Assembly (NCBI RefSeq): GCF_003611605.1 | Contig: NZ_RAVX01000011.1 | Location: 68,811 to 132,810, forward strand | Origin: Corallococcus sp. AB011P | Lineage (GTDB): Bacteria; Myxococcota; Myxococcia; Myxococcales; Myxococcaceae | DNA length: 64,000 nt | Reading direction: 5' to 3' | Shown here: piece by piece, positions 5,541-39,514 of the stretch | Layout of the letters: each line of letters opens with the position of its first letter | Position numbering within the stretch: the first letter of the stretch is position 1 | Notes under the pieces: model-generated | Told to the model about the DNA's origin: nothing | Seen by the model: the letters and a program-made list of their open reading frames with translations, nothing else | Databases searched by the model: none | Program-made: the position numbers and the translations under genes

Positions 5541-5542
5541 AT

Positions 5543-5617: not shown

Positions 5618-5647
5618 ATCAGGTACTGCGGTGCTGCGTGCTTCGTT

Positions 5648-5722
5648 TGGAGCGGGAAAAGGGATTTGAACCCTCGACCCTCGCCTTGGCAAGGCGATGC
5701 TCTACCGCTGAGCTATTCCCGC
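5648..5722 (-). tRNA. tRNA-Gly (anticodon GCC), identical second copy
   Basis: This is an identical 75-nt copy 105 bp upstream of the first, separated from it by a 30-bp spacer. Confidence 0.9.
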
Positions 5723-5804
5723 ATCAGGTACCGCTGTGTTGCTTGCCACCCGGTTGGTGCCGCGCCGGAGGTGGGGTGCGATATACAGAGGCCCTTCGGA
5801 CACG

Positions 5805-6494
5805 TCAAACACTTTTCGCATCCGGATCCGTGCTGCCCCGGCGGGCAAGCATGTTGAGGAACGCGCGAAAGTAGACGACGGCGCTCCACACGGAGAACGC
5901 ACCCGACAGGTACACCAGCACCTTGCCCACCTGGTTGTAGTCCACGGTGACGACGCGGAAGCCCACGTCCAGCGGGTGCACGTAGTGGACGCACAGGGAG
6001 ATGATCCCCACCAGCTGGAGGGACGTCTTCCACTTCCCCTCCTGCCCCGCGGCGATGACCATGCCTTCACTGGCGGCGATGGTGCGCAGGCCGGTGACGA
6101 TGAACTCGCGGGCCAGGAGCACGATGACGACCCAGGCGGCGATGCGGCCCAGGCGCACCATCATCACCAGGGCGGCCATGGCGATGAGCTTGTCCGCCAG
6201 CGGATCCATGAACTTGCCCACCACGGTGATGAGGTTCCAGCGGCGGGCCAGGTAGCCGTCAATCACGTCGGTGATGGCGGCCAGCGCGAACACCAGGGCG
6301 GCCACCAGCGAGTGCAGGGGATCCGCGTCGTAGGTGAGCCAGACGAACACGGGGATGAGGAGGATGCGCCCCAGCGTCAGCATGTTGGGCAGGTTCCAGA
6401 ACTCCTGCACCAGGATGCTGGGACGGCGGGACGCGCGGCGGCGGGCCCGCTCCTCGCGCTTGCGCTGCTTCCTGAGGGCTCGCTCGGTGGCCAT
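5805..6494 (-). CDS. pgsA: CDP-diacylglycerol--glycerol-3-phosphate 3-phosphatidyltransferase
   Basis: It carries the CDP-alcohol phosphatidyltransferase motif DVIDGYLAR...GKFMDPLADK and is a multi-TM protein. The Lys/Arg-rich N-terminal 37 aa may be spurious, and an alternative start at 6383 is possible. Confidence 0.8.
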   Translation of the reverse strand: MATERALRKQRKREERARRRASRRPSILVQEFWNLPNMLTLGRILLIPVFVWLTYDADPLHSLVAALVFALAAITDVIDGYLARRWNLITVVGKFMDPLADKLIAMAALVMMVRLGRIAAWVVIVLLAREFIVTGLRTIAASEGMVIAAGQEGKWKTSLQLVGIISLCVHYVHPLDVGFRVVTVDYNQVGKVLVYLSGAFSVWSAVVYFRAFLNMLARRGSTDPDAKSV

Positions 6495-6505
6495 GGGCGC
6501 GCGTT

Positions 6506-18786: not shown

Positions 18787-21300
18787 CTAGTGGACCTCGG
18801 GCGGGGGCGCCCCCAGCTTCTCCAGCAGCTTCTCCACCGGATCGCTGTCCTGGCTGACGTCCGCCATGGCGGCCCGGTACTCGATGGAGGTCACCTGCTC
18901 CACGTCCGGCATCAGGCGGTTGATGACCGTGCGCGCCGCGTCCGCGTTGCACTCGGGCAGCACCACCGCGAAGACGCCCAGCCCCAGATGGGAGATGGAG
19001 TCCGGGTGGCGCACGCGCTTGCGCATCACCTCCGCCATGTTGGGCGGCATGACGTCCAGCTCGCGGTCCGGACGCAGCACCGCCAGCGTGAGGGCGCGGT
19101 GGTAGCGCCGGCTGCGGGCCACCTCCTGCTCCAAGCGCAGGAGCAGGCCGCGGCGGTCGAGCAGGCCCGTCGCCGGATCGCTGCCGGTGCGCCGCTGCAG
19201 CGAGTTCGTCTTGTCCTGCTGTTCCTTGTCGCCCTGGCGCAGCTTGAGCGCGCGCTCGGTGCGGTTGAGCAGCTCCACCGCGTTGAAGGGCTTGGCCATG
19301 TAGTCCACCGCGCCCAGGTTGAGCGCGCGGACCTTGTCGGCCACGCCCTGGTGGGCGGACAGGAGGATGACCGGGATGTGCGCCGTGTCCGACGAGGACT
19401 TGAGCGCCATGGCCGCGTCCAGACCGTCCAGCTTGGGCAGGAACACGTCCATCACCACCAGGTCCGGCCGTGAAGCGCGCGCCTTCGCCAGGCCCTCCGC
19501 GCCGTCGCGCGCCACCTCCACGCGGTACTTCGAGCGCAGCACCTCCGACAGCACCGCCGCGATTTCGGGCTCGTCCTCCACCACCAGCACGCGCGGCTGC
19601 TCGGGCGCGGCGCCGGGCGCGGGCTGCGGCCGGGGGTTGCGCGCGGCCTCCTGCGCCAGGGGCAGCGTGAAGACGAAGGTGCAGCCGCCGTCGGCCGGGC
19701 TCTCCGCCCAGATTTCACCGCCGTGCAGCTCCACGAACTCCTTGCAGATGGCCAGCCCCAGCCCCGTGCCCTTGGGCCCGTGACGGTACCGGTCGAAGAC
19801 GAGGTGCAGCTCGTCCGGGGGAATGCCCACCCCGTTGTCGCTCACCATCACCCGCACCGCGTCGCCGTCCGGCCGCGACAGCCGCTGCGTGCGCACCACC
19901 ACCACGCCCGGGTCGCTGGCGTGCTGGATGGCATTGCTGATGAGGTTCTGCAGCACCTCGTGCAGCTTCACCTCGTCGCCAATCAGCATCAGGCTGTCGG
20001 GGCACTCGGAGCGCAGCGACACGGCCTTCTCCGCCGCGAGGATCTCCAGCTCCGCCACGGCGTCGCGGCACAGCTGCGCCACGTCCAGCACGCGGGGCTC
20101 GATGGAGAGACGCGCCGCCTCGCCCTTGCCCTTCTCCAGCAGGGACTCGACCAGGGTGAGGATCTTCCGGCCCTGGCGGATCATCGCCTCCGCGGACTGC
20201 TTCTGCTGCGTCTCCAGCGGCCCTTCCAACAGCAGCCGGCCGTGCCCCAGGAGCACCTGGAGCGGCGCGCGCAGGTCGTGGCTGCACACCGCGATGATCT
20301 CATCCTTGAGGCGGTTGAGCTCCTTCAGGCGGCGGTTCGCGTCGTTGAGCTCGCGGTAGCGCTCCACGTACGCCAGCTCCAGGTCCTCGCGCTTCTTCTT
20401 CACCGCCGTGTGCAGGCGCGCGTTGCGGATGGAGTTGGCGAGCACACCCGCCACCGCCTCCGCGAACTCCTGCTCGTCGCGCCCGATGGACGCCTCGCCC
20501 TTGGACACGCGCAGGAAGAGCGCGCCCAGCAGGTCGTCCTGGCAGATGAGCGGCTGCACCAGGATGGACTTCACGCCTTGCGGCAACAGCGACGTGCGCA
20601 CCTCCGCCATCAGCGGGTCGCGCTGCGCCTCTTCAATCAGGACGGGCTGCCGCGTCTCCAGCGCGCGGCGCAGCTCCGGGTAGCGCGCCACCTCGATGTC
20701 CAGCTGGACGAGGCTGGGGTCCTCCTGCGTCGCGACGACCGTGGCCGTGCGCGCGTGGCTGCCCTCCACCAGCACCACGGAGCAGCGGTCCGTGCCCGTC
20801 ACCTGGCCGACCTTCTCCACCGCGATGCGGAGGATCTCCTCCAGCTCCAGCGAGCTGGTGGCCGCCTGGGTGATTTCGAGCAGCATCCCCATGCGCATCC
20901 GGATGCGCTCCTCGCGCTCCTTGAGCCTCCAGGCGCGCAGGGCGGACTCCAGCCGGGGCACCAGCTCATCCGCGCCACGCACGAAGTCGTCCACCGCCAG
21001 CCGCTTGAAGGCCTCCGCCGAGCGCGCGCGGCCCTGATCCACCAGCACCGGCAGGCGCTGGAGCTTGTCCGTCTTGCGCACCGTCTCCAGCAGCTCCGCC
21101 GCCCGCTTGGCCGTCACCGCCAGGAGCACCACCTCCGGCTGGAGCTGATCCACCATCTCCGCCAGCCCGGTCTCCCGTTCCGTGGAGGCGCACTGGTAGC
21201 CACTCGCCGTGAGCCGCTCCACCAGCGCGTCACCCGCGGCCTTCGCCGCGAGCACCAGCACCCGCCCCCGCTGCTCAGACGACAACATCTCGATCCTCAC
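18787..21300 (-). CDS. sgmT: Hybrid sensor histidine kinase: pseudo-receiver, GAF, HisKA/HATPase, REC, degenerate GGDEF (SgmT-like c-di-GMP receptor kinase)
   Basis: It has an H-box AVCSHDLRAPL, an N/G box DNGVGIP...GTGLGLAI and a REC domain (LVVEDE...DLVVMDVFLPKLDG). A C-terminal GGDEF-fold domain is present but GGDEF is replaced by HLGLGVF. The architecture and genomic position match M. xanthus SgmT. Confidence 0.75.
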   Translation of the reverse strand: MRIEMLSSEQRGRVLVLAAKAAGDALVERLTASGYQCASTERETGLAEMVDQLQPEVVLLAVTAKRAAELLETVRKTDKLQRLPVLVDQGRARSAEAFKRLAVDDFVRGADELVPRLESALRAWRLKEREERIRMRMGMLLEITQAATSSLELEEILRIAVEKVGQVTGTDRCSVVLVEGSHARTATVVATQEDPSLVQLDIEVARYPELRRALETRQPVLIEEAQRDPLMAEVRTSLLPQGVKSILVQPLICQDDLLGALFLRVSKGEASIGRDEQEFAEAVAGVLANSIRNARLHTAVKKKREDLELAYVERYRELNDANRRLKELNRLKDEIIAVCSHDLRAPLQVLLGHGRLLLEGPLETQQKQSAEAMIRQGRKILTLVESLLEKGKGEAARLSIEPRVLDVAQLCRDAVAELEILAAEKAVSLRSECPDSLMLIGDEVKLHEVLQNLISNAIQHASDPGVVVVRTQRLSRPDGDAVRVMVSDNGVGIPPDELHLVFDRYRHGPKGTGLGLAICKEFVELHGGEIWAESPADGGCTFVFTLPLAQEAARNPRPQPAPGAAPEQPRVLVVEDEPEIAAVLSEVLRSKYRVEVARDGAEGLAKARASRPDLVVMDVFLPKLDGLDAAMALKSSSDTAHIPVILLSAHQGVADKVRALNLGAVDYMAKPFNAVELLNRTERALKLRQGDKEQQDKTNSLQRRTGSDPATGLLDRRGLLLRLEQEVARSRRYHRALTLAVLRPDRELDVMPPNMAEVMRKRVRHPDSISHLGLGVFAVVLPECNADAARTVINRLMPDVEQVTSIEYRAAMADVSQDSDPVEKLLEKLGAPPPEVH

Positions 21301-27521: not shown

Positions 27522-29234
27522 CTAGCAGTCCACCGGGCCTTTCAGGCTGGTAACGGTCGCTTCGATTTCTTCACACCCTCCCAGGGTTTTCGCCCCGTGG
27601 GCCGCCAGCTTGATGCCCAGCACGTCCCCCACCACCACGTCCGCCATGGAGCGCACCACGACGCCGTCCCGCTGGCGGAACGTCACCGCGTAGCCGCGAG
27701 ACATCACCTTCAGGGGGCTCAGGGCGTCCAGGCGGCCCCCCAACCGTCCGAAGTGCGTCTGCGCGGAGGCCAACATGCCCCGCTGCAGCTCCAGGAGCCG
27801 CGAGCGCGCCTGGGCCACCTTCGCCCGCTCGGCCGCCACCCGCGCCGTGGGGGATTGCCGCTCCAGCCCCAGCCGCGCGTCCGCCAGCGCGCCCCGCCGC
27901 CGGGTGACTCCCGCGCGCGCCGCCTCCGACAGGCGCATGGCCAGCTTGAGCAGGTGCGCCCGCTGCTCCGACAACCGCGTCTGGGGCCGCGCCCGCTGCA
28001 GCCGCTCCTGAAGGGCGCGCAGCGTCTCCCGGTGCTCGCGCGTGCGGGGGCGCAGCACGCGCATCATCGCCTCCACCTGTTCGGACAGGTGCAGGCGCTG
28101 GTGGTTCACCTCGCGGCGAGGGTCCGGCAGCCGCGCGCGAAGCTGGCCCTGGCGCCCGCGCAGCTCCAGCACCCGCCGCTCCATGGCCCGGCGCAGCCGG
28201 CCAGACTGCGTGGCCAGCGTCAGCTCCAGGTCGGCGAGAACCGGGGCCAGCCGCTCCGCCGCCGCGCTGGGCGTGGGCGCGCGCAGGTCCGCGACGAAGT
28301 CCGAGATGGTGAAGTCGATTTCGTGGCCGATGGCGGACACCACCGGCACCGGCGAGGCGAAGATGGCGCGCGCCACCCGCTCCTCGTTGAACGTCCAGAG
28401 GTCCTCCACGGAGCCTCCGCCGCGCGTCACGACGATGACGTCCACGTCGGTGCGCGAAAGCCGCTCGATGGCCCGCGCCACGTCCTCCGCGGCGCCCTCG
28501 CCCTGCACGCGCGCGTCCGCCAGCAGCACGCCCAGCCGGGGGTTGCGCGAGTGCAGCACGCGCAGGAAGTCCTGGAGCGCCGCGCCGGTGCGGCTGGTGA
28601 CGACGCCGATGCGCCGGGGCAGGAACGGCACGGGCCGGGGCGGCCGCACGCGCCGGTCGCCAATGAGCCCCTCCGCCGCCAGCCGCTGCTTGAGCTGCTC
28701 GAACGCGAGCGCCAGCGCACCCTCGCCCACCGGCTCCAGCCGGGACACGATGAGGCTGTAGCGGCCCTGCGGCTCGTACAGGTCCACGCTGCCCTCGGCC
28801 ACCACCTCCATGCCGTCGCGCAGCGCGAAGCGGATCCGCCCCGCCATGGACGCCCACACCTTCGCGTCGATGGAGGCGTCCGCGTCCTTGAGCGTGAAGT
28901 ACCAGTGGCCGCGCGCGTTGGCGCCGCGGAAGCTGGACACCTCGCCGCGCACCAGCACGCGCGGGAAGCGCGACTCCACCGTCTGCTTGATCTGCCGGGT
29001 GAGCTCGCCCACCGACAACACCGTGCGCTCCGGGCGCGGCGGCGGGGTGACGGCGGCCGGGGGCGGCGGAGCGACTTCGGCCGCCGGCGCGGTGGGCGGG
29101 GCCGCGGGCGGCTTGCCTCCACTGGCGGCCTTCGCCGGCGCGGGACGCAAGGGGGGGAGCAGCGACGTGCCGAACAGGTCGCCCTGCCCCGGCGTCTCGG
29201 CCGGGGGCGGCTCCAGCCCCTTGCGCTTCTTCAT
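27522..29234 (-). CDS. xseA: Exodeoxyribonuclease VII large subunit with Pro-rich N-terminal extension
   Basis: It has an OB-fold plus the XseA catalytic domain. The start is the ATG at 29232-29234 (MKKRKG), which overlaps the upstream stop as ATGA. The 725-aa track ORF over-extends. Confidence 0.85.
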   Translation of the reverse strand: MKKRKGLEPPPAETPGQGDLFGTSLLPPLRPAPAKAASGGKPPAAPPTAPAAEVAPPPPAAVTPPPRPERTVLSVGELTRQIKQTVESRFPRVLVRGEVSSFRGANARGHWYFTLKDADASIDAKVWASMAGRIRFALRDGMEVVAEGSVDLYEPQGRYSLIVSRLEPVGEGALALAFEQLKQRLAAEGLIGDRRVRPPRPVPFLPRRIGVVTSRTGAALQDFLRVLHSRNPRLGVLLADARVQGEGAAEDVARAIERLSRTDVDVIVVTRGGGSVEDLWTFNEERVARAIFASPVPVVSAIGHEIDFTISDFVADLRAPTPSAAAERLAPVLADLELTLATQSGRLRRAMERRVLELRGRQGQLRARLPDPRREVNHQRLHLSEQVEAMMRVLRPRTREHRETLRALQERLQRARPQTRLSEQRAHLLKLAMRLSEAARAGVTRRRGALADARLGLERQSPTARVAAERAKVAQARSRLLELQRGMLASAQTHFGRLGGRLDALSPLKVMSRGYAVTFRQRDGVVVRSMADVVVGDVLGIKLAAHGAKTLGGCEEIEATVTSLKGPVDC

Positions 29235-30979
29235 CGCGACAGCTTCTCGACCCAGCCCTGGGCCTTGCCGTGCAGCTCGTCGTCGGGCGGCGTCATCGCG
29301 ACGACGTCGCGGAACTTGGGCAGCGCGTCCTCCGGGCTGGAGTCCTTGATGGAGTAGGCCTGCATGTACAGGTCCTTCGCCTTGGCCTTGAGGTCGTTGA
29401 CGATGTTGGCGGCGCCCGTGTGGCTGGGGTCCGCCTGGAGCGCGCGGCGGGCGAACTCCATGGCGCGCGACCACTGGCCGGCGGCCTTCGCGCCCGCGGC
29501 GCTCTTGTAATAGATGTTCCCCGCGCGGGTGCCCGCGTTGCGCGCCATCTTGCTCGTGCGCCCGTCGGTGATGTCCTTGTCCAGCGCGAGCAGGCGGGTG
29601 AGGCCCTTGGCGTCCAGGTCCTCCAGCTTCTTGTAGAGGTTGCCGAACTCCGTCATCTGCCCCATCAGCTGCTTGCACTGGGGCGTCTTGGCCGAGCACG
29701 CGTTGAGGATGGCCACCGCGCCGGTGATGTCAGCGTCGCGGAAGCGGTCCACCGCGGGCTCCCACGGCTTGGGCACCGCGGCCACACGCACGGGGTCCGG
29801 ACGCGTCAGGTCCGCGATGACGCGCACGGCGTCGTCGTTGACGAGCTTGCCGTCGCGGTGCTCGGGGAAGGTCGCGAGCACGTCGTCGGTGATGGCCTTG
29901 GCCTTCTGCACGTTCTCCAGCTGGCGGGAGTCCAGCAGCCCCTTGGCCTCCTTCGTGCGCTTGTCGGCGGCGTCCGTCAGGTTCCTGCGCGCCGTCTTCA
30001 GCTGCTCGTAGAGCTGGGTGTCGCTGGTCACCTTCTCGATGGACGCCTTCGCGCTGGCCAGCTCGCCCTTGTCCAGCGCCGCCTGGGCCGTGCCCAGGTG
30101 GTTCTGGTTGGGGATCTCCCGCTCCGCGGCCTTCAGGTAGTCCGCCACGCCGGGGTAGTCCGGCGCCTGGGCGTGGAGCTCCTCCAGCTTCGCCTTGGCC
30201 TGCTGCCACTGGCCCTCGCGCACCAGGTTCTTGGCATCCTGGAAGAGGCCGCCCAGCTGCTCGCGGTAGTTGCGCTGCTCCGCCTCGATGCGGCCCTGCT
30301 CCTCCGCCTGTTGCCGCATGCGCGAGCGCACGACGCCCAGGCCCGCGAAGAGCACCACCAGCACGGCGACGCCCGCGAGCTTCATCCGCATGCGCTTGCG
30401 CTGCGCCTCCGGAGTGAGCTCCGCGGCGGCAGCGGCGCGCGACGTCTGCGGGCGCGCGCGGCCCTCCCGGGCGGGACGCGGGGGCACGGCCGTGGGACCG
30501 CGGCCCGCCGCCGTGGACGGACGGGGCCGGGGGCCGGTGGGGGCCTGCACCTTCGCGGTGCTGTTGGCGGTGTCCTCGTAGCGCAGCTCCGAGTCACCCA
30601 GCGTGATGACGTCGCCGTTGGCGAGGAGCGTCTCCTCGGAGATGGGCTCGCCGTTGACGATGGTTCCGTTGCCGGAGCCCATGTCACTGACCATCCAGCC
30701 GGCGGACTCCTTGCGCAGCGTCACGTGCTTGCGCGAGACGGACGTGTCCTGGATGCAGATGGGGTTGTCGGTGGCGCGGCCGACCGTGTACTCGAGCTCG
30801 GAGAGCGCGAACTCCTCGCCCTCCATGGGGCCGGCGACGACGACGAGCTTCGCGGGGCGGGCCGCGGCGGCACCGGCGGTCGACCGGCGGACCGGCGCGC
30901 GCGAACCAGTCCCCGAGGAGGGCGTACCGGATGTAGGCCGTCGGCGGGCGGGGGGAGGTGCGTTCGACATGGAGGTCAC
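29231..30979 (-). CDS. FHA-domain protein with one TM segment and C-terminal TPR-like helical domain
   Basis: The N-terminus has FHA motifs (GRATDNPICIQDTSVSRKHV...GSGNGTIVNG). A TM segment KLAGVAVLVVLFAGLGVV is followed by a roughly 350-aa helical domain. Confidence 0.7.
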   Translation of the reverse strand: MTSMSNAPPPARRRPTSGTPSSGTGSRAPVRRSTAGAAAARPAKLVVVAGPMEGEEFALSELEYTVGRATDNPICIQDTSVSRKHVTLRKESAGWMVSDMGSGNGTIVNGEPISEETLLANGDVITLGDSELRYEDTANSTAKVQAPTGPRPRPSTAAGRGPTAVPPRPAREGRARPQTSRAAAAAELTPEAQRKRMRMKLAGVAVLVVLFAGLGVVRSRMRQQAEEQGRIEAEQRNYREQLGGLFQDAKNLVREGQWQQAKAKLEELHAQAPDYPGVADYLKAAEREIPNQNHLGTAQAALDKGELASAKASIEKVTSDTQLYEQLKTARRNLTDAADKRTKEAKGLLDSRQLENVQKAKAITDDVLATFPEHRDGKLVNDDAVRVIADLTRPDPVRVAAVPKPWEPAVDRFRDADITGAVAILNACSAKTPQCKQLMGQMTEFGNLYKKLEDLDAKGLTRLLALDKDITDGRTSKMARNAGTRAGNIYYKSAAGAKAAGQWSRAMEFARRALQADPSHTGAANIVNDLKAKAKDLYMQAYSIKDSSPEDALPKFRDVVAMTPPDDELHGKAQGWVEKLSR

Positions 30980-31006: not shown

Positions 31007-34000
31007 CTAAAGCTCGTGCTCATAGGCTTTTTCCTGCGCGAGATTGTGGCAGCGATGCTCGGCCGTAGGGAAGCGTCTCCGTACGTCTTCCAGGGTCGCG
31101 ACCGCATCCCGTCGGCTGCGGAACTGAACCGCCCGCTGGAACTGCATCATCAGCTGGCTGCAGCGGTGGTCCAGCTCCGTTGAAATCTGGGCGATCCGCT
31201 CCCGGACGTCCTCGTAAAGCTCCGGCTTTTCGTCCAGCGCTTCCAGGGTGATCCACGCGGCGCGGTACTCCCGCCACGCCTTGAACAGGTTCTCCGCGCC
31301 CACGTCCTTGAGCTCGTAGAAGCGGGCCCCCGCCTTCGCGGCCTCCCGGGCGGAGGAGACCAGCTGATCCGGCGGCAGCTCCGGCACCGGGATGACCTCC
31401 AGCCGCAGGTTCCAGATGCGCCACGGGTCGCGGCCGGGCGGGTTGAGGGCGTTGTCGAAGAGGAGCTGGTTGTTGGCGTTGCGCCGCAGGAGGCTGGGCG
31501 GGAGGACCTGCTCCAGCTCGCGCTCGGCCGTCTGCGCAGTGTCCGGGGGCACCCAGCCCAGGGATACGCCGTTGAGGGACAGGTTGACCTCGTCCCGGGC
31601 GATGCCGCTGGCCTGGTAGTGCAGCACCGCCACCGCGCGCGTGGGGGACACGAAGCGGAAGTCGAAGAGCTTGTCGTCGGCGTGGACCCAGCGCACACCG
31701 TCGCCCAGGCCGAAGGAGTCCGTCACCGGCTCCATGCCCAGCTTGAAGGGTTCGCGGCCCGGGAGCCGGATGGCCGTGGGGGCCGCGAGCGCTACGAGCA
31801 GCGTCACCACGCCCAGCATGGCCACGACCGCCAGCGACGCGAAGCCGATGCGCTTGGGCAGCGACTGGCGCTGCCAGAAGAGGAGGAACCGGCCCTGGAG
31901 CGACTTGCCCAGCTGACGCCGCTTGCGGGCCTTGTCGGCGGCGGACGAGGGCTCGACCTTCGCGACGACCGTCACCGGGCCGTTGGGCACGGGCTGGGCG
32001 ACGGAGTCCTCCAGGTCGGCGGGCACGGGCAGGGTGGCGTCACCCTCCACGTCCGGAGCGGGTACGCGGGCCAGTGGGGATTCGCCCGGCGGCGGGCCGG
32101 GGGGGATCCAGGCCGGAGGAGGCGCCACGGCCGGTGCGGCGGGCCCGGGCGCGACCTGGCCCGTGAAGGTCCCCGAGGCCCGAGTCTCCTCGGGGGCCGC
32201 GGAGAAATCATCGTCCTGGCCGACGAAGGTCGAGGGCTCGCTGGAGTCGATCGCGGCGGCGGGCGCGCTCACGACGCGGACCGGCGGGGCCACGAGCGGA
32301 CTGACCGGGGTGATGGGCCGGAGTTCGAGGAGCGTCCGCTCCTCGGGCTCCTCCATCGCCGGCGGAGGCAGCGCGGGCGAGGCCTCCTGCTGCGGCGGCG
32401 CCACTTCCAGGGGCGGCGCTTCCGGGGCCGCCGGAATCGCCATCAGCGTGCGCTCCTCGGGCTCGTCCAGCTCCGGGAAGGGCAGCACGGGAGGCGGCAC
32501 GGCGGCGGGATTGGGCGAGCCCACCGTGGAGATCGCCATCAGCGTGCGCTCCTCGGGCTCGTCCAGCTCCGGGAAGGGCAGCACGGGAGGCGGCGCGGCG
32601 GCGGGATTGGGCGAGCCCACCGTGGAGATCGCCATCAGCGTGCGCTCCTCGGGCTCGTCCAGCTCCGGGAAGGGCAGCACGGGAGGCGGCGCGGCGGCGG
32701 GCTCGGGTGCGGCCGCCGTGGGAATCGCCATCAGCGTGCGCTCCTCGGGTTCGTCCGGCACCATGGGGGCCAAGCCCACGGGAGGCGGTGCGACGGAAGG
32801 CCGTGCTGGAGGCGGCGGAGCCATCAGCCCCGGCGGCGACATCAACGGCAGGCCGGGCGCGGAAGCCGCGGCCCCCCGGGCCGCCGGAGCAGTGGACGCG
32901 CGCGCGGCGCCAAGCCCCAGCGAGGGACGGTTCAGCGCGGGCGCACCGACACCGGGCAGGTTCGCGACGGCGTGCCGCTTCGCGGGAGCCGCTGGTTCAA
33001 CGGGAACTGCCGCGACCTTCTCCGGAGCGGAGGCCGCCGTCGGGGCAGGAGTTCCGGCCGCGGGAAGCTCGATCGCCGTGGGGTGCGAGGGCGCCGGGGC
33101 AGCCTCCGGCGCGGACGACCGGCCCGGTCCCGAGGCACCGACCGCTGACAGTCCCGGCCCGGAGGCCCGGACGGAGGCGGAAGCGCCCGAAGCCTTGTTC
33201 GCCGCCGAGGCGCTCAGCACCGGGGGGCCAGCAGGAGCCTTGGCCGGAGCACCCGGCGCCGAAGGCCCCGACACGGGAGGTGCGGCGGGAACCTTGCCCG
33301 AAGCAGCGGACGCGGAGGCTCCCAGCACAGGAGGCCCGGCGGGAACCTTGCCCGAAGCAGCGGACGCGGAGGCCCCCAGCACAGGAGGCCCGGCGGGAAC
33401 CTTGCCCGAAGCAGCGGACGCGGAGGCCCCCAGCACTGGAGGTCCGGCGGGAACCTTGCCCGAAGCAGCGGACGCGGAGGCACCCAGCACTGGAGGCCCG
33501 GCGGGAGGCTTGAGCGAAGTCGCCGCACCCGGCGCGGAGGCCCCCAGCACAGGAGGCCCCGGAGGAGTCCGGACCGGTGCAGCCGCGCCTGGCACCGAGG
33601 CACTGACCGCAGGAAGATCCGGAGCGGAGGGCCGCTTCGGTGTAGCGGCCGCGGGCAGCGGCATCGCCGGGGTCGCCCCACCCTTCGCGGCGGGCACGGC
33701 CATTCCCGGGCGCGGTAGGGATGCAGGCCGGGCCATGGCCGGCATCGACTGCTGGTAGCTCGTGGGCGCCGCTTCGATCTCCGCGAGCGAGGCCTGCTCC
33801 ACGCCCTGCGGCGACACCCTCGCGTGGGGCGGCGCGAGCACCCGCCGGATGGGCCGGGTGACGTCGTTGTCATCCTCCGGCGGCACCCACACGAAGGTGA
33901 ACTCCACCGGCCCCACGGTGATGCGGTCGCCGTCGCGCAGCTGCTTCTCGCCGCCCAGCGGCTGGCCGTTCAGCTGCGTGCCGTTCGCGCTGCCAACGTC

Positions 34001-34105
34001 CTCCGCGAAGTAGCGCCCATCCCTGGCCGTGATGCGGGCATGACGCCGGGAGACACCGTGGTCATGCAGCACCAGGTCGTTCTCCGAGGTCCGGCCGATC
34101 TTCAC
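31007..34105 (-). CDS. Giant FHA-domain protein (1032 aa): FHA, long Pro/Ala-rich repeat linker, TM, C-terminal globular domain
   Basis: The N-terminus is an FHA domain (GRTSENDLVLHDHGVSRRHARI...GSANGTQLNG). It is followed by 18-aa repeats (x4) and 32-aa repeats (about x4), then a TM segment FASLAVVAMLGVVTLLVALAA and a roughly 270-aa C-terminal domain. Confidence 0.7.
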   Translation of the reverse strand: MKIGRTSENDLVLHDHGVSRRHARITARDGRYFAEDVGSANGTQLNGQPLGGEKQLRDGDRITVGPVEFTFVWVPPEDDNDVTRPIRRVLAPPHARVSPQGVEQASLAEIEAAPTSYQQSMPAMARPASLPRPGMAVPAAKGGATPAMPLPAAATPKRPSAPDLPAVSASVPGAAAPVRTPPGPPVLGASAPGAATSLKPPAGPPVLGASASAASGKVPAGPPVLGASASAASGKVPAGPPVLGASASAASGKVPAGPPVLGASASAASGKVPAAPPVSGPSAPGAPAKAPAGPPVLSASAANKASGASASVRASGPGLSAVGASGPGRSSAPEAAPAPSHPTAIELPAAGTPAPTAASAPEKVAAVPVEPAAPAKRHAVANLPGVGAPALNRPSLGLGAARASTAPAARGAAASAPGLPLMSPPGLMAPPPPARPSVAPPPVGLAPMVPDEPEERTLMAIPTAAAPEPAAAPPPVLPFPELDEPEERTLMAISTVGSPNPAAAPPPVLPFPELDEPEERTLMAISTVGSPNPAAVPPPVLPFPELDEPEERTLMAIPAAPEAPPLEVAPPQQEASPALPPPAMEEPEERTLLELRPITPVSPLVAPPVRVVSAPAAAIDSSEPSTFVGQDDDFSAAPEETRASGTFTGQVAPGPAAPAVAPPPAWIPPGPPPGESPLARVPAPDVEGDATLPVPADLEDSVAQPVPNGPVTVVAKVEPSSAADKARKRRQLGKSLQGRFLLFWQRQSLPKRIGFASLAVVAMLGVVTLLVALAAPTAIRLPGREPFKLGMEPVTDSFGLGDGVRWVHADDKLFDFRFVSPTRAVAVLHYQASGIARDEVNLSLNGVSLGWVPPDTAQTAERELEQVLPPSLLRRNANNQLLFDNALNPPGRDPWRIWNLRLEVIPVPELPPDQLVSSAREAAKAGARFYELKDVGAENLFKAWREYRAAWITLEALDEKPELYEDVRERIAQISTELDHRCSQLMMQFQRAVQFRSRRDAVATLEDVRRRFPTAEHRCHNLAQEKAYEHEL
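32330..32790. repeat. 96-bp tandem repeats (three near-perfect copies plus degenerate flanking copies) encoding PVLPFPELDEPEERTLMAI... units
   Basis: The unit atcgccatcagcgtgcgctcctcgggctcgtccagctccgggaagggcagcacgggaggcggc... starts at 32436, 32532, 32628 and 32724. Confidence 0.8.
33291..33510. repeat. Four tandem 54-bp repeats encoding (GKVPAGPPVLGASASAAS)x4
   Basis: The unit accttgcccgaagcagcggacgcggaggcccccagcacaggaggcccggcggga recurs at 33291, 33345, 33399 and 33453. Confidence 0.8.
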
Positions 34106-34178
34106 TTCGGCCTGCTCGAAGGCGAGCTCCCGTCCAACCTGGAGCCCCTGGGTGATGGTGAGCAGGATGGGCAGAGGA

Positions 34179-35069
34179 CTAGCCCCCGACGTTGCCGAAC
34201 ATGAACTGGAACACGATGGGCCCGAAGAGCACCATGAACACCGTCGGGAAGATGCAGGCGATGAGCGGGAAGAGCATCTTCACCGGTGCCTCGCCCGCCA
34301 GCTTCTCCGCGCGCTGCGTGCGGTCGATGCGCATCTGCGTGGACTGGATGCGCAGCACCTTGCCCAGGCTCGTGCCCATCTTGTCCGCCTGGATCAGCGC
34401 CGTGACGAACGTCGTCAGGGACGGCAGGTCCACACGCACGATCATGCTCTTGAGCCCCTCTTCACGCGTCTTGCCCATCTTGAGCTGCTTGAGCACCAGC
34501 TGCAGCTCTTCACGCAGCGGACCCTGGCGGCCCTTCTCCACCACCTTCGCCAGAGCACCCGTGAAGTCCATGCCCGCTTCCACCGACAGCGTCAGCAGGT
34601 CCAGGTTGTACGGAAGCGCGCGGCTGATGGCCAGGTGCCGGCGCTTCACCTGATCGTTCAACCAGATGAGCGGATAGAACAGGCCCAGCAGCATCACCAG
34701 CAGCGACCAGGCCAGGTTCGACCCGAGGCCGTTGACGACGAACAGGCCGACCAGCAGGCCGAAGAAGGCGCTGATCTCCTGCAGCGCCATGATGTCCTCG
34801 GGCTTGTACTGGGACGGCTCGCCCGCCTTGATCAGCTTGCGGCGCGTCTTGGACTCGTAGCCCGGCCACATGAAGCGCCGGTTCATCGCGCCCAGCTTGC
34901 GGATGGCGACGGAGCCCGCGCCCTTCATGCCGCCCGCGGACTCGTCGCGGACTTCCGTGAGGAAGCGCTCCAGGAGGTTGGAGTACAGGCCGATGCCCAG
35001 GAACGCCACCGCGCCCGCGGTCAGCAGTGCCGAGCCGCCCATCAGCAGAAATGTCAGGACTTCCTGCAC
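34179..35069 (-). CDS. tadC: Type II secretion system F family protein (TadC-like inner membrane platform)
   Basis: It has the GspF/T2SSF domain with three TM segments. Confidence 0.8.
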   Translation of the reverse strand: MQEVLTFLLMGGSALLTAGAVAFLGIGLYSNLLERFLTEVRDESAGGMKGAGSVAIRKLGAMNRRFMWPGYESKTRRKLIKAGEPSQYKPEDIMALQEISAFFGLLVGLFVVNGLGSNLAWSLLVMLLGLFYPLIWLNDQVKRRHLAISRALPYNLDLLTLSVEAGMDFTGALAKVVEKGRQGPLREELQLVLKQLKMGKTREEGLKSMIVRVDLPSLTTFVTALIQADKMGTSLGKVLRIQSTQMRIDRTQRAEKLAGEAPVKMLFPLIACIFPTVFMVLFGPIVFQFMFGNVGG

Positions 35070-35082
35070 GGTGCGCCTCGTT

Positions 35083-35928
35083 TCAGATGTCGATGTTGAC
35101 GATGCGCCGGATGATGAGGATGCCCATGATCTCCATGATGGCGATGATGGTCACCAGGATGTAGCCGAAGATGTGGTTCATCATCGGCTCCATCAGGTCC
35201 GGACGCATGTAGTTGAGCACCAGGCCGAGCACCGCCGGCATGGCCGCGACGATCCACCCTTGAAGCTTGCCCTGGGACGTCAGCGCGTCGATCTTGCCTT
35301 CCAGACGGAAGCGCTCGCGGATCACCGTGGAGATGGTCTCGAACATCTCCGCCATGTTGCCGCCCAGCTGGCGCGCGATGTTGGTGGACACCACCACCAG
35401 CTCCAGGTCGTCGCTGCCCACGCGGCGGCCCATGTTGATGAGCGCCTCCTCCAGCGGCACGCCCAGCTTCACTTCCTTCACGAAGAGGCCGAACTCCTGG
35501 GACAGGGGCGGCATCGCTTCGCGCGCCACGTGCTCGATGGCCTGGGGGAACGTGAGGCCCGCCTTGAACGCGTTGGCCATGGCCTGCAGCGCGTCCACCA
35601 ACTGCACGTTGAACTTCTTGATGCGGCGCTTGCGGTAGTGCTTCACGAGCAGCATCGGCAGGAAGAAGCCGAAGATGGTCGCGAGCACCGCCAGGATGGG
35701 GTTGAAGATGATGTAGCTGAGGATGCCCAGGAGGCACATGCAGGCGATGTTGAGGATCAACATCTGCCGCGGGTCGATGAAGAGGAACATGTCGCTCAAG
35801 TCGTTCATCGACTTGGCGACGTACCGCTCCTGGTACTGCTCATACGCCTTCGACAGGACGCTGAAGATCACCAGGCTGAAGAAGAACACCGAGCCGGTGA
35901 CGAGAAGGAGGACGATACCTGCGAGCAT
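35083..35928 (-). CDS. tadB: Type II secretion system F family protein (TadB-like inner membrane platform)
   Basis: It has a T2SSF domain and is the paralogous partner of the adjacent gene. Confidence 0.8.
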   Translation of the reverse strand: MLAGIVLLLVTGSVFFFSLVIFSVLSKAYEQYQERYVAKSMNDLSDMFLFIDPRQMLILNIACMCLLGILSYIIFNPILAVLATIFGFFLPMLLVKHYRKRRIKKFNVQLVDALQAMANAFKAGLTFPQAIEHVAREAMPPLSQEFGLFVKEVKLGVPLEEALINMGRRVGSDDLELVVVSTNIARQLGGNMAEMFETISTVIRERFRLEGKIDALTSQGKLQGWIVAAMPAVLGLVLNYMRPDLMEPMMNHIFGYILVTIIAIMEIMGILIIRRIVNIDI

Positions 35929-36006: not shown

Positions 36007-36825
36007 CTACGGAGAGCCGGCCGAGGCCTTCTCGCCGCCGCCGCTGCCCTTGATGATCTGGATGATCTCCCGGCGCTTCTGCTCCAGCACGCGGGTGCGC
36101 TCACCGGAGAGCAGCGTGCTGATGGTGGCGCGGCCGCGTTCCTCGATGAGGTCCACGTCGTCCTCGTTGCGCAGGGACAGGGTCAGCTGCCCCAGCTCCG
36201 CCGCCAGCACCAGGATCTCCGCCTCTTCCGGCAGCACCATCAGCGAGACGTTGGAGTACTCGCGCTGGTTCTCCGGGATGAGGTTGATGTTCGTGGTGCC
36301 GGTGATCTTGCCCGTGGCGACCACGATGATGTTCTGCAGCAGCGTCACCGCGACGCTCTCGTCCGTCTGCGGATCGCGGAACGTGCCGATGATGTCCACG
36401 TGGTCGTTCGGGCGGATCCACCCGCCCACGGACGTGGTCTGCTTCGCCTCGATGGTGATGGCGCGCGCCTTCTTCTGCACCTTCGTGGACAGGCGCTCGG
36501 CGGCCTTCGTCGTCTCGAACTGGCTCCAGAGGATGGGGTCGCCGGCCTGCAGCGCCACCAGCACCTTCTGGTTCACGATGTAGTTGGCGGAGTCCGGCTT
36601 CACCACCGACGAGGTGACGAACTGCTCCGGCACGGAGCGCTGGGAGATCATCTCGTACGTGATGACCGAACCCTCGGGCATGTCCTGGCCCGCCACCACC
36701 ACGGGCACCAGGTTCCACCCGCGGCGCACATCCGATTCCTTCTTCTTGATGGCCGAGTAGGCCACGATGCCCGCGAGCAAACCGAGCACCAGTGCGACGA
36801 CGAGTGGGGTCTTACCCTTCAACAT
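36007..36825 (-). CDS. cpaB: Flp pilus assembly protein CpaB/RcpC
   Basis: It has an N-terminal TM segment followed by SAF/RcpC-like domains. Confidence 0.8.
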   Translation of the reverse strand: MLKGKTPLVVALVLGLLAGIVAYSAIKKKESDVRRGWNLVPVVVAGQDMPEGSVITYEMISQRSVPEQFVTSSVVKPDSANYIVNQKVLVALQAGDPILWSQFETTKAAERLSTKVQKKARAITIEAKQTTSVGGWIRPNDHVDIIGTFRDPQTDESVAVTLLQNIIVVATGKITGTTNINLIPENQREYSNVSLMVLPEEAEILVLAAELGQLTLSLRNEDDVDLIEERGRATISTLLSGERTRVLEQKRREIIQIIKGSGGGEKASAGSP

Positions 36826-37058: not shown

Positions 37059-37361
37059 TCAGGGGAACGGCAGGTTCAGCACGAAGTAAAACGAGTCGTA
37101 ATAGATCTGGTACGCCTCGAGGAACAGGTCGATGACGTTGGTCTGCCGGTCGTCCGTCCAGCGGATCTTCACCGTGGCGCCGATGACGAGCCCGACGATC
37201 AACACCCAGTTGATCATCGAGTACTCCACCATGGCCTGGCCACGGCGGGCCCGGCGCGGGGAGCGCGGCGGTGACTTCCGGGGGCTGTTCACGGGGGGAG
37301 CGTGCACGTCCGACGTCATGTCCCCATTATCCAGGACCCGGGCCCCGGACGCATCGGTCAT
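37059..37361 (-). CDS. Flp/Tad-type pilin (class III signal peptide)
   Basis: It has the Flp motif G/QAMVEYSMINWVLIVGLVIG (G-x4-EY followed by a hydrophobic stretch). It has an unusually long leader of 27-41 aa depending on the start. Its GC content is locally lower, about 55%. Confidence 0.6.
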   Translation of the reverse strand: MTDASGARVLDNGDMTSDVHAPPVNSPRKSPPRSPRRARRGQAMVEYSMINWVLIVGLVIGATVKIRWTDDRQTNVIDLFLEAYQIYYDSFYFVLNLPFP

Positions 37362-37379
37362 GTGGACTGCCGCCCTCCC

Positions 37380-38837
37380 CTACTGGGCGGGCTGGGAAGG
37401 GGCGGCCTTGGCCGGAGCAGACGCCGGAGCCGTGGGGGGCGCGGCCTGACGCAGGCGGCGCTGGGCCAGCTGCGCCGCGCTGGAGCCGGGGGCCTCCGTG
37501 AGGATCTGCCCGCAGACGGCGGCGGCCTCCTGGGTCCGGCCCTGGACGGACTCCGACTCGCAGAGCCGTGAGAGCAGGGCCACCCGCTCGCTGCCGCTGG
37601 CTCCGGCCGCGAGCGCGGCGCGCAGCAGCTGGGCCTCCCGGGCGCGGTCACCCTGGTTCGCGGCGGCCTGGGCCTGGGCGGACAGGTCGCGCGCCGTCAT
37701 CGCCTCCTTGGAGGCGGACTTCTCCATGGGCGCCGGCTTCGAGGCCTCCGCGCGGGCGGACTCCCGCTTGGGCATGGCGGTCGAAGGCGCCGGGGGCGTG
37801 GACGGAGGCGTCGCACCTCCGAGGGAGCCCACGGCGGAGGGGGCCATGGGCGCGGCCTGGACCACGGGCGCGGAGGCCACGGAAGGAGGCGGCGGAGGCG
37901 CACCCGCGGCGACGCTCTCGTCGTCGTCCGAGGCGAGCCCACGGCCATAGGCCGCCTCACCCAGCCGCAGGGAGGCGCCCGCCGAGCCCATGGCCTTGTC
38001 GCTGAGCTTGCCCGAGGAGCGCCGTCGCGCGGGTTCATCCTTCGCGACGTAGCCGTCGTTGGCCGCCTCTTCCTTCGGAGGCGCCTCCGGCATGACCGCC
38101 CCGGCCGTCGCCTGCTCGAGCGCGGCGAACTCGCCGTCCGCGTCCCGGACGGCCTTGGACATCTTCTTCTTGGGAGCCTCGGCGTCCGCGCGGCGCTCCA
38201 GCAGCGCGCCACCGCTGCCCGCGTTCATCCAGTCCGACGGACGGGCCGCGGCGGTGCCCTTGCGCTGCACCTTGGCCTCCACCTGGTTCTTCTGGAGCTC
38301 CATCTCGCTCGGCGCGGCCGCCAGTGCGTCCGAGGCACCTTCGGGCACGTCCACTTCGAGGGTCGCGCTCGAAGGCGCGGGGGCCATCGCGGCCGGGGCG
38401 CGCTTGTCCCGCGTCTGCGATTCCTGCTTCGCCGCCAACATCGGGCTGGGGGCCTCCCGCTGCGACAGGTTTGGCGCCAGATCGATGTTCTCGCTCACCG
38501 TCAACGTCAGGAGGCCGAAGGTACCCACCGTAGCCAGGCCCACCGCGGGCAGCAGGAAGCGGCGCCAGCGCGAGGGCTTCGGCTCGGGGCCGGCGGCGGC
38601 GCGGCGCGCGGACTGCTGCGCGTACGCGAGCAGCGACTCCAGGCCCGCGTCCGGCGCGGGCTCCGACGACAGCTGCGCCATGGTGGTGCGCACGCCGCGG
38701 ATGTCCGCCAGCGCCTTCGTGCAGCGCGCACAGCCCTGGACGTGCTGCTCCAGTGCGTGGGCCTCCGACGCGGGCAGCTCGCCGTAGGCGAAGTCGAGGA
38801 GCCGGTCCTCGTGCGCGTGGGCATTCTGGGCATTCAT
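37380..38837 (-). CDS. Zinc-finger anti-sigma factor with TM segment and large extracytoplasmic domain ending in a TPR-like segment
   Basis: The N-terminus has the ZAS motif HxxxCxxC (HVQGCARCTKAL). It has a single TM segment, and its start overlaps the ECF sigma stop as ATGA. Confidence 0.7.
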   Translation of the reverse strand: MNAQNAHAHEDRLLDFAYGELPASEAHALEQHVQGCARCTKALADIRGVRTTMAQLSSEPAPDAGLESLLAYAQQSARRAAAGPEPKPSRWRRFLLPAVGLATVGTFGLLTLTVSENIDLAPNLSQREAPSPMLAAKQESQTRDKRAPAAMAPAPSSATLEVDVPEGASDALAAAPSEMELQKNQVEAKVQRKGTAAARPSDWMNAGSGGALLERRADAEAPKKKMSKAVRDADGEFAALEQATAGAVMPEAPPKEEAANDGYVAKDEPARRRSSGKLSDKAMGSAGASLRLGEAAYGRGLASDDDESVAAGAPPPPPSVASAPVVQAAPMAPSAVGSLGGATPPSTPPAPSTAMPKRESARAEASKPAPMEKSASKEAMTARDLSAQAQAAANQGDRAREAQLLRAALAAGASGSERVALLSRLCESESVQGRTQEAAAVCGQILTEAPGSSAAQLAQRRLRQAAPPTAPASAPAKAAPSQPAQ

Positions 38838-39514
38838 CCCGCCACCGTCCTTCCATCCTCCGACAGGTCGCCGTCCACGCCCAGCTCACCCAGGCGGCGG
38901 CGCAGGCCCTCCAACGCGTAGCGCATGCGGCTCTTCACCGTGTTCTCGGACACGCCCGTCACCTCGGCGATCTCCTTGAACGGGATGCCGCTGTACTCGC
39001 GCAGCACGAACACCTCGCGCTGCTCCTCCGGCAGGGCCGACAGGGCCCGCTCCAACAGGGGCCGGAGGCGGGCGTTGTGCGCGCCCCGCTCCGGGCTGGC
39101 CCCGGCATCCGGCAGCCCCTCGCCCAGCGGACGTCCCTCGTCGCCGTCGGCACCCGCCGAGGGGGCTTCCAGGGACGTCGTCTGGCGGTAGCTCTCTTTG
39201 CGCGTGCTGTCCACGCAGAGGTTCCTCGCGATGGTGTACAGCCAGGTCGTGAACCGGGCCTTGGGCTCGTATTCCCGGGCGCTGCGGACCACCTTGAGCC
39301 AGGTCTCCTGCAGCACGTCCTCCGCCCGCGCCCTGTGGCCCACGAAGCGCAGGATGAAGTTGAACACCGGCGCGCGGTGCTTGCGCACCAACGCATCGAA
39401 CGCACGCGCGTTTCCCGCCTGGAAGGCGAGCATCAGCTGCTCGTCTGAGGTTTCGGGTGCCAAACTTCCCCCAGTGCCCATGAAGCCACGGGTGCCATCC
39501 CCTTCACCGCCCAA
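38834..39514 (-). CDS. ECF-family RNA polymerase sigma factor
   Basis: Sigma70 region 2 (FDALVRKHRAPVFNFILRFV...DVLQETWLKV) and region 4 are present. An alternative start is MGTGG at 39481. Confidence 0.8.
   Translation of the reverse strand: MGGEGDGTRGFMGTGGSLAPETSDEQLMLAFQAGNARAFDALVRKHRAPVFNFILRFVGHRARAEDVLQETWLKVVRSAREYEPKARFTTWLYTIARNLCVDSTRKESYRQTTSLEAPSAGADGDEGRPLGEGLPDAGASPERGAHNARLRPLLERALSALPEEQREVFVLREYSGIPFKEIAEVTGVSENTVKSRMRYALEGLRRRLGELGVDGDLSEDGRTVAG

Follow-up and report, generated by a model that had tools for sequence, protein, structure and literature searches.

The window analysed here is a stretch of 64,000 nucleotides from Corallococcus sp. AB011P (contig NZ_RAVX01000011.1, positions 68,811 to 132,810 of the forward strand). 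The gene under study lies on its minus strand in a cluster for the Kil system, a Tad-like apparatus responsible for contact-dependent prey killing in Myxococcus xanthus (Seef et al. 2021, eLife, PMC8460266). It encodes a membrane-anchored FHA domain protein with a long disordered linker, in which tandem DNA repeats have produced five copies of an acidic threonine motif, here called EERT, whose core is, judging from its pattern of variation, under purifying selection. The open reading frame (ORF) at 31007..34105 (-) was confirmed in the ORF listing of the window, and its 1032-residue product matches the 'FHA domain-containing protein' of Corallococcus sp. AB011P (WP_255424215 / WP_233591785) with 100% identity. 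The Pfam domains encoded on the minus strand from 36825 to 29231 follow the order RcpC/SAF, T2SSF, T2SSF, FHA and FHA+TPR. The gene order is identical in the C. coralloides locus L081 and in the M. xanthus gene table, where Kil cluster II contains MXAN_4652 (kilB), MXAN_4651 (kilG), MXAN_4650 (kilH), MXAN_4649 (FHA) and MXAN_4648 (FHA+TPR) (supplement of PMC8460266, from which the kil gene names were taken). The C-terminal domain shows 57-60% identity to Myxococcus proteins over 99% of its length (E about 1e-112), and the locus of M. xanthus AM003 (L030) shows 57% identity. The gene is the Corallococcus version of MXAN_4649, a bitopic inner-membrane protein of Kil cluster II. No function or phenotype was found assigned to MXAN_4649 in the literature searched. 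The features of the locus are given in Table 1.

Table 1. Features of the MXAN_4649-like gene of Corallococcus sp. AB011P and its neighbours (positions in the window)
Feature	Position	Strand	Basis or remark
Whole gene, positional ortholog of MXAN_4649	31007..34174	(-)	1055 aa if the start is CTG 34174-34172
Canonical FHA domain	33881..34174	(-)	Pfam FHA, likeness to GarA/OdhI, AlphaFold2
Conserved acidic-Thr motif EDDNDV-T83-RPIRR	33842..33877	(-)	Right behind the FHA domain; pT+3 = Ile
Cytoplasmic disordered linker, aa 91-735 (~645 aa)	31901..33835	(-)	Composition and AlphaFold2
Pro/Ala/Ser/Gly-rich 54-bp (18-aa) array, (S)GKVPAGPPVLGASASAA	33194..33603	(-)	About 6-7 units; repeat finders
96-bp (32-aa) array	32282..32779	(-)	Four units and one degenerate, one EPEERT-x-hydrophobic-x-hydrophobic each; repeat finders and coding register
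EERT copy 1, ERTLMAI, T457	32723..32743	(-)	
EERT copy 2, ERTLMAI, T489	32627..32647	(-)	
EERT copy 3, ERTLMAI, T521	32531..32551	(-)	
EERT copy 4, ERTLMAI, T553	32435..32455	(-)	
EERT copy 5, ERTLLEL, T591	32321..32341	(-)	pT+3 = Glu
Third acidic-Thr motif, EPS-T626-FVGQDDD	32207..32239	(-)	
Basic juxtamembrane segment (AADKARKRRQLGK, aa 722-734) and single transmembrane (TM) helix (aa 753-775)	31781..31942	(-)	Sequence
Periplasmic domain	31010..31774	(-)	Predicted CBM/PPC-like beta-sandwich, aa ~785-907, and TPR-like five-helix bundle, aa ~912-1029
Downstream neighbour, FHA-TM-TPR protein, positional ortholog of MXAN_4648	29231..30979	(-)	Pfam and comparison with the M. xanthus table
Upstream kilH	34179-35069	(-)	TadC-like; Pfam T2SSF
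Upstream kilG	35083-35928	(-)	TadB-like; Pfam T2SSF
Upstream kilB	36007-36825	(-)	CpaB/RcpC; Pfam RcpC+SAF

Two long near-identical repeat arrays, of 54 and 96 bp, had been described in the linker by the first-pass annotation, and both were confirmed using Tandem Repeats Finder. The 96-bp array was located at 32436-32756 (3.3 copies, 95% matches, score 572) and the 54-bp array at 33203-33559 (6.5 copies, 84% matches, score 427), beyond which a degenerate 60-bp form carries on to 33603; a second repeat-finding method was concordant on both. When placed in coding register the 96-bp units occupy 32779-32684, 32683-32588, 32587-32492 and 32491-32396, and a fifth, degenerate one follows at 32377-32282. 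Exact direct repeats reach 106 bp, the longest lying at an offset of 96. At least three near-perfect 96-bp repeats had been claimed, which holds for units 2 and 3 (95/96 positions over the full length) but not for the remaining pairs at 52-77%, though the stretch PVLPFPELDEPEERTLMAI is identical in three units. Within the 54-bp array three SGKVPAGPPVLGASASAA units (33463-33302) have a mutual DNA identity of 94-98%, the fourth unit 89% and the flanking copies 59-82%. The repeats are thus perfect, as they had been called, at the protein level for three to four of the 54-bp units, and near-perfect at the level of the DNA.

The 32-residue units of the acidic array each carry one EERT motif, and the array-final unit is of the type ERT[VL]L[DE]L in every Corallococcus protein listed. 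The five E-R-T-x-hydrophobic-x-hydrophobic motifs compare with an expectation of 0.002 and a maximum of 1 in 5000 shuffles of the linker, which excludes chance. A six-frame scan of the window revealed no EERT motif outside the gene, and a homology search for other motif-bearing proteins using two EERT units alone scored no match. The alignment of 86 Corallococcus units gave the consensus [DE]-E-P-E-E-[R76/H9/S1]-T86-[L/V]-[M/L]-[A/D]-[I/L], and 24 Myxococcus units gave E-E-[RH]-T-[ED]-[VL]-x-L-[PS]-T. Motif positions -6 to +4 hold a single residue or residue class in 88-100% of the units, while no residue at the flanking positions exceeds ~57%, with the exceptions of L at -12 and P at +12. The Thr is kept in 109/110 units across the two genera when the search anchor does not require it, and the codons of the invariant motif residues vary synonymously (GAG/GAA, ACG/ACC, CGC/CGG/AGG, ATT/ATC). 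The invariant Thr in an acidic context, already remarked upon by the first-pass annotation, is therefore strongly supported and reaches across genera. Because the Thr is retained while synonymous codons vary and the spacers have diverged, the motif appears to be held by selection and not by duplication alone, and this pattern of variation indicates that the core [DE]EPEE[RH]T[LV][ML]x[IL] is a short linear motif under purifying selection.

Two further acidic-Thr motifs flank the repeats. At the position of EDDNDV-T83-RPIRR a T-[RQ]-x-hydrophobic motif occurs in 73/85 FHA-bearing family members, and T106/R107 in the numbering of the 1055-residue protein, which correspond to this motif, are nearly invariant. 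The M. xanthus group has 2-3 tandem copies of a DPDATRPIR motif and Archangium has two. The third motif, EPS-T626-FVG, is accompanied by a degenerate copy, ASGTFTGQ, at 32165-32185 (-), and further Corallococcus proteins contain 2-4 copies of EP-x-T-F-[VA]-G-[QRK]-[DE]. Over the whole family an enrichment of [DE]xTx-hydrophobic was obtained only for expanded linkers (z = 3.6-7.2; M. dinghuensis 2.4), and the short-linker members show none because they use other registers (DATRPIR, ATLxEM).

The residue numbers used here are those of the 1032-residue product unless stated; those of the 1055-residue product are higher by 23. Pfam FHA (PF00498) matched residues 2-65 with 70.7 bits (E=1.4e-19), the cut-off being 20.7, and the residues that contact phosphothreonine (pThr) are kept as GR (IGR), SxxH (GVSRRHA) and NGT (SANGT), which align identically in GarA. 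Residues G40, V41, S42, R43, H45, G65, T66 and N69 are invariant in the family. The nearest solved structures were GarA/OdhI (E=2.5e-13), and this alignment opens at 'LLTITQG', at residue 4 of an N-terminal extension. The AlphaFold2 model of 1055 residues gave a predicted local distance difference test (pLDDT) score of ~94 over residues 1-100 with strands at 3-9 and 16-19. The complete 11-strand FHA beta-sandwich was obtained only when the 23 codons upstream of GTG 34105 were included, the first two beta-strands (LPILLTITQGLQVGRELAFEQAE) being encoded 5' of this ORF-finder start. As both the GarA alignment and the model extend upstream, the start at 34105 adopted in the first-pass annotation truncates the FHA domain.

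No in-frame ATG, GTG or TTG was found upstream of GTG 34105. Where M. xanthus has its GTG start, the window has CTG (34174-34172), 5 nt past the TAG stop of kilH and preceded by a GGGGG run. CTG also occupies this position in 10/10 Corallococcus loci covering the 5' end of the gene, as it does in several loci of Myxococcus, Pyxidicoccus and Citreicoccus. The start given in NCBI records varies between GTG 34105 (1032 aa), ATC 34156 (1049 aa) and CTG. Since the GarA alignment and the AlphaFold2 strands lie upstream of GTG 34105 and the CTG is conserved, CTG 34174 is probably the true start, giving a protein of 1055 aa. The conserved CTG suggests either non-canonical initiation or termination-reinitiation coupling with kilH.

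The linker (aa 91-735) is composed of 22% Ala and 21% Pro and forms a charge diblock, with a net charge of +15 at aa 91-440 and of -28 at aa 441-735. Residues 101-746 of the 1055-residue AlphaFold2 model have pLDDT values below 50 and no secondary structure. The juxtamembrane segment contains an A-R-x-R-R motif that is nearly invariant in the family, and by the positive-inside rule this basic segment places the FHA domain and the linker in the cytoplasm. The periplasmic domain contains the only two Cys of the protein (C982, C1019), both invariant. Its fold was predicted with high confidence and is at odds with the HHpred label 'PrgH' that MXAN_4649 carries in PMC8460266. The CBM/PPC-like and TPR-like modelled folds hint at periplasmic binding of glycan, peptidoglycan or protein.

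The protein was compared with more than 100 homologs and 80 genomic loci, all from Myxococcaceae, Archangiaceae or unclassified Myxococcota metagenome-assembled genomes (one record being named Comamonas). Typical family members have 460-520 aa, linkers of 58-200 aa and no EERT motifs. In the M. stipitatus/fulvus/landrumensis/eversor group the protein has 627-~690 aa, with a linker of 234-276 aa and 3-5 EERT motifs, and in Corallococcus it has 903-~1100 aa, with a linker of 507-709 aa and again 3-5 motifs. M. dinghuensis has a protein of about 1380 aa with a linker of about 965 aa and different acidic-Thr units. At 1032-1055 aa the AB011P protein is long for the MXAN_4649 family and not giant, as it had been called. 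A profile search of 1.84 billion representatives gave 186,502 matches, which were diluted by the FHA columns and are usable only for the lengths of full-length members; among the best 150 the only member of the C-terminal-domain family above 710 aa was a Corallococcus representative, the other long proteins matching at FHA-profile positions only. The Corallococcus tether has been lengthened about six-fold by lineage-specific tandem DNA duplications of two unit types, one a Pro/Ala/Ser/Gly unit of ~18 aa and the other an acidic unit of ~32 aa.

The first-pass annotation had expected copy number and linker length to differ between relatives, and the comparison of related genomes bears this out; its reading of the variation as an adaptive 'tunable spacer' is conjectural. 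The number of EERT units is not identical in the 22 Corallococcus proteins but 3, 4 or 5, and the core length ranges from 885 to 1073 aa; at least three motifs are present in 27/27 complete proteins (22 from Corallococcus, five from M. stipitatus/fulvus/landrumensis). Of ten Corallococcus loci examined, eight carry tandem repeats in the linker, and each of these has periods of its own, which are 96, 99, 108, 114 or 117 bp for the EERT unit and 45, 48, 54, 60 or 87 bp for the Pro/Ala unit. A 90%-identity cluster (C. exiguus and allied strains) contains a one-unit indel of 20 aa between strains, and two C. interemptor entries are 31 aa apart in length. The sister strain AB045 (P0135/P0137) has in unit 2 (aa 494-500) the unit-1-like tail PTAAAPEP, where AB011P has the unit-3-like tail STVGSPNP. 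The two genes are equal in length and 5/9 of their differences convert this tail from one form to the other, which could be the result of gene conversion or of assembler (de Bruijn-graph) mis-threading through the 106-bp identical tracts. From the near-identical units, the species-specific periods, the unit indels and the unit swaps between close strains it follows that the repeats are still turning over in Corallococcus.

In a neighbour-joining tree of the conserved domains (no bootstrap) each EERT-bearing clade lies beside a motif-free short-linker clade, and this interleaving implies either two gains or several losses of the motif. The EERT array is absent from Citreicoccus and the M. xanthus group. 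The M. dinghuensis protein contains the repeated acidic-Thr units EEDDQTLPPM (x4) and PEESTAMLAP (x3), and is a second, independent expansion of such units. Its locus (L014, about 2750-6891) has ~4 copies of a 108-bp repeat encoding '...EEDDQTLPPMS...' and ~3 copies of a 99-bp repeat encoding 'DGPEESTAMLAPAAVLAQL', plus EERT-like motifs. Taken jointly, the identity of the gene and these evolutionary statements are held with high confidence.

Several observations concern the public records of this family. In three loci, L016, L017 and L019 (M. qinghaiensis, 'C. terminator BB12-2' and M. eversor), an 84-bp 'PLVAPVAPPRLVPVLADDFPALAPPSGK' repeat (gene positions ~418-696, 2.2-3.3 copies, 92-95% identity) lies within the linkers of the long-linker Myxococcus clade. 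L017 bears the name Corallococcus terminator, yet its gene groups with Myxococcus, and the record may be mislabelled or contaminated. Annotation faults include the name 'adenylate cyclase', N-truncated ORFs of 577-607 aa in complete genomes, a spurious 229-aa ORF across the repeats, many proteins tagged 'partial' where contigs end and a frameshifted kilH-FHA fusion (P0029). The 577-607-aa homologs were considered as real truncations or phase variants and this was rejected, because the frame of L081 (CP034669.1, 2792-5794) is open over about 1001 aa and the N-truncation is therefore an annotation error.

Around the gene, long ORFs overlap it on the opposite strand at 31619-33758 (+) (509 and 611 aa) and in other frames; they are repeat-rich readings of GC-rich DNA (71% GC) and were treated as non-coding since they failed the codon-position GC filter for likely genes. 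Upstream of kilB (37059-39514 (-)) lie a 106-aa ORF that matches neither Pfam nor NCBIfam, a 485-aa zf-HC2 anti-sigma-like protein and an extracytoplasmic function (ECF) sigma factor, followed by two oligopeptide-type ATP-binding cassette (ABC) ATPases and an MshEN-domain protein. The layout of the Kil cluster beyond kilB may be arranged differently from that of M. xanthus. Positions 18787-21300 (-) encode a GAF-domain hybrid histidine kinase/response regulator. The Kil-system context, the N-terminal extension and the conserved Thr of DVT83RPIRR had not figured in the first-pass annotation.

The AB011P protein resembles MXAN_4649 in its position between kilH and MXAN_4648, its layout of FHA domain, TM helix and C-terminal domain, and the DATRPIRR sequence after the FHA domain. 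MXAN_4649 differs in having about 484 aa, a linker of about 70-80 aa, no EERT motif, no Pro/Ala array, two DxDATRPIR copies and a GTG start. Curated family models gave scores below their cut-offs for SctD (TIGR02500, 18.8 against 86 bits), TagH/Fha (TIGR03354, 64.2 against 120.25, FHA region only), GltG (NF033760, 51.2 against 650, FHA region only) and GarA/OdhI (NCBIfam, 49 against 200 bits), and the protein is therefore not a member of any of these. With SctD (YscD/PrgH/EscD) and GltG it shares an N-terminal cytoplasmic FHA fold, a single TM helix, a periplasmic domain and a match to Pfam Yop-YscD_cpl, but the similarity is confined to the FHA fold. No SctD/PrgH chain was present among the structural matches listed for the periplasmic domain, which were CBM-like and TPR-like folds. 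The FHA domains of SctD proteins are generally regarded as non-phosphopeptide-binding, whereas the Corallococcus domain keeps all of the phosphopeptide-binding residues.

Further parallels are found among FHA proteins that bind pThr. GarA and OdhI have a phosphorylated N-terminal Thr motif that is bound in cis by their own FHA domain. GarA/OdhI, the closest solved FHA domain, has an identical GR...VSRRHA...NGT pattern and an acidic Thr motif of its own (ETTS); GarA is however small and soluble with one N-terminal motif, while the Corallococcus protein is membrane-anchored with its motifs C-terminal to the FHA domain, five of one type plus at least two other types, on a 645-aa tether. Rv1747 of Mycobacterium tuberculosis has cytoplasmic FHA domains and a disordered linker in which pThr residues (T152, T210 and others) cause multivalency, oligomerisation and clustering or phase separation. 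It is likewise a membrane protein with a Thr-bearing disordered linker, and its FHA sequence is detectably similar (E=3e-8). Rv1747 differs in being an ABC transporter; it has two FHA domains, its linker is ~100 aa long and free of tandem DNA repeats, and a kinase gene, pknF, lies next to it. The Corallococcus protein has a single FHA domain, lacks a transporter domain and a kinase nearby, and owes its motifs to repeats. In type VI secretion (the T6SS) Thr phosphorylation through the PpkA/PppA pathway triggers assembly, and condensates of Fha and PpkA recruit components of the machine. Fha1/TagH is also an FHA protein with a disordered region in a contact-dependent antibacterial nanomachine, and the analogy between T6SS Fha and the Kil FHA proteins was proposed by the eLife authors (PMC8460266). 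Fha1 is on the other hand soluble with another phospho-acceptor context, and Kil is a Tad-type pilus and not a contractile system. By analogy, the Corallococcus protein plausibly works like Rv1747 or T6SS Fha.

The first-pass annotation had proposed the repeated Thr as a docking site for FHA domains, and on the evidence of its sequence the EERT peptide is probably a docking site. In the proposed mechanism the Thr residues of EERT, DVT83RPIRR and EPST626FVG would be phosphorylated in trans by one of the many Hanks-type kinases of myxobacteria. The resulting pThr array would be read by FHA domains, whether that of the protein itself or those of the neighbouring FHA-TPR protein, KilF, KilD or MXAN_3104. 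The FHA domain of the neighbour (29231-30979) also keeps the GR, SxxH and NGT residues and could be a second reader of the motifs. A multivalent, membrane-anchored FHA/pThr scaffold of this kind would concentrate Kil components at the inner membrane, as in the clustering of Rv1747 and T6SS Fha, with the Pro/Ala block acting as an inert entropic spacer that sets the reach. FHA proteins are over-represented in kil clusters, where a role in phospho-signalling has been proposed (PMC8460266), and reviews list them as candidate signalling parts. A mapped M. tuberculosis phosphosite, DDQQD-pT-EAIAIP, has a context very similar to that of EERT. The M. tuberculosis kinase motif is reportedly acidic on the N-terminal and hydrophobic on the C-terminal side of the pThr. 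Other acidic-Thr units have multiplied independently in M. dinghuensis and in the M. xanthus group, which also speaks for docking.

The classical ligands of FHA domains are pT-x-x-[ILV] or pT-x-x-[DE], in which the third residue after the pThr (pT+3) is selected (Durocher et al. 2000, ELM LIG_FHA_1/2). This rule fits DVT83RPI (Ile) and the array-final EERT unit (ERTLLE/ERTVLD) only. Since its Ile at pT+3 agrees with the rule, unlike EERT, DVT83RPIRR is a candidate for the FHA ligand ancestral to the family. The position pT+3 is Ala in the four ERTLMAI units and Ala or Gly in most Myxococcus units, and this is the first of several points that weigh against docking of the phosphorylated array. 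The conserved hydrophobic residues lie instead at +2 and +4, which would also suit docking of a beta-strand independently of phosphorylation. A search for Hanks kinase (HRDxKxxN) or PP2C signatures in any frame of the 64-kb window, together with Pfam on the neighbours, gave none. The full-length AlphaFold2 model showed no rise in pLDDT, no secondary structure and no docking in cis at the motifs, although this is weak evidence because AlphaFold2 does not model phosphorylation. The M. xanthus ortholog has no EERT motif, and the array is therefore not essential to the core Kil mechanism. A deletion of MXAN_4649 was not seen in those passages of the strain and plasmid supplements of PMC8460266 that the search covered, neither a deletion nor a fusion of it was reported in the literature searched, and the literature search found neither phosphorylation or binding data for the protein or MXAN_4649 nor a myxobacterial phosphoproteome covering the protein.

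Overall, that this is a membrane-tethered FHA protein of the Kil cluster with a repeat-made, selected acidic-Thr array, and that FHA domains read the array after phosphorylation, is possible and falls just short of evenly balanced; the pThr-docking mechanism taken alone is advanced more tentatively. An extended version, in which prey contact leads a Hanks kinase in trans to phosphorylate 5-7 acidic-Thr motifs, five or more Kil FHA proteins including the FHA-ATPase KilF bind, and the resulting network, possibly a two-dimensional condensate, nucleates the killing machine and positions it at the contact site while duplication retunes valency and reach, is speculative and must be considered unlikely.

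The same motif might serve for docking without phosphorylation, with the acidic tract and a T-x-hydrophobic-x-hydrophobic strand bound by strand addition or in a groove and the Thr having a structural role. Candidate partners would be the TPR domain of the neighbour or of KilD, the KilF ATPase and the cytoplasmic domains of KilG/H. The hydrophobic residues at +2/+4 alternate as in a beta-strand and do not occupy the +3 typical of FHA ligands, the acidic tract at -6 to -2 and the Pro at -4 are conserved as strongly as the Thr, the adjacent gene and cluster I both code for TPR proteins, and short-linker family members have hydrophobic 'ATLxEMxxPT' motifs; the lack of a kinase gene in the window is also in keeping with such docking. 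The Thr is, however, unreplaced by Ser, Val or Ala in 109/110 units, which is stricter than a structural strand residue predicts, and in the FHA domains of the protein and its neighbours the pThr-binding residues are intact. Nor does AlphaFold2 predict a strand or docking at the motifs. This explanation is regarded as rather unlikely, and docking of the phosphorylated motifs to FHA domains is preferred.

The repeat structure and copy number might also be in part an artefact of assembly, through short-read collapse or mis-threading across the 106-bp identical segments. The source of AB011P is a short-read draft in which the contig measures 255 kb, and the first-pass annotation had warned of collapse at these repeats; many Corallococcus drafts do break exactly in the linker, their contigs often ending within it. 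The difference between AB045 and AB011P is confined to a variable tail between identical segments, as mis-threading would give. Against this, the complete chromosomes of C. coralloides KYC2213, C. exercitus SDU142 and C. coralloides CP034669 share this architecture, their frames being intact and their units numbering 4-5, the AB045 and AB011P sequences are two independent assemblies of equal length, and the reading frame is kept throughout; a partial artefact is regarded as very unlikely. Also very unlikely is a linker that is a mere low-complexity spacer, drifting in length by slippage or unequal recombination with inconsequential copy number and an EERT likeness due to concerted evolution: units are indeed more alike within than between genomes (ISTVGSPN in AB011P, IASVDSPV in DSM 2259), periods differ by species, the array is missing in the M. 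xanthus group and Citreicoccus, and PPVLGAS is the sole conserved motif of the Pro/Ala block, but the core is common to Corallococcus and the M. stipitatus/eversor group despite 56-63% C-terminal identity and unalignable spacers, the synonymous differences at invariant residues denote long-term purifying selection, and 27/27 complete proteins of the two lineages have three motifs or more.

A repeat-generated array of Thr motifs with variable valency on a protein of the Kil system is a feature of which no description was found in the literature searched. It offers a clear bacterial example of the valency of a short linear motif evolving through tandem DNA repeats. On the practical side, public records systematically give the gene a wrong start and a wrong name ('adenylate cyclase'), and draft assemblies break it. 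Assembly of the Kil machine takes place only at the contact between Myxococcus and its prey, where Kil proteins cluster, and a 2026 preprint attributes this assembly to 'unknown spatial determinants'; the FHA proteins of the kil clusters are treated in the literature as suspects for signalling. The EERT peptide, present in 3-5 copies on a membrane tether beside the KilG/KilH platform, is a concrete candidate ligand for the Kil FHA proteins. The two further conserved Thr motifs are also candidates, and DxTRPIRR is present in the genetically easy M. xanthus. If the extended version is true, an FHA/pThr network would answer what spatially determines Kil assembly, and each lineage would retune by duplication both its valency, from 3-5 motifs to the ten or more acidic-Thr motifs of M. 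dinghuensis, and the reach of its tether.

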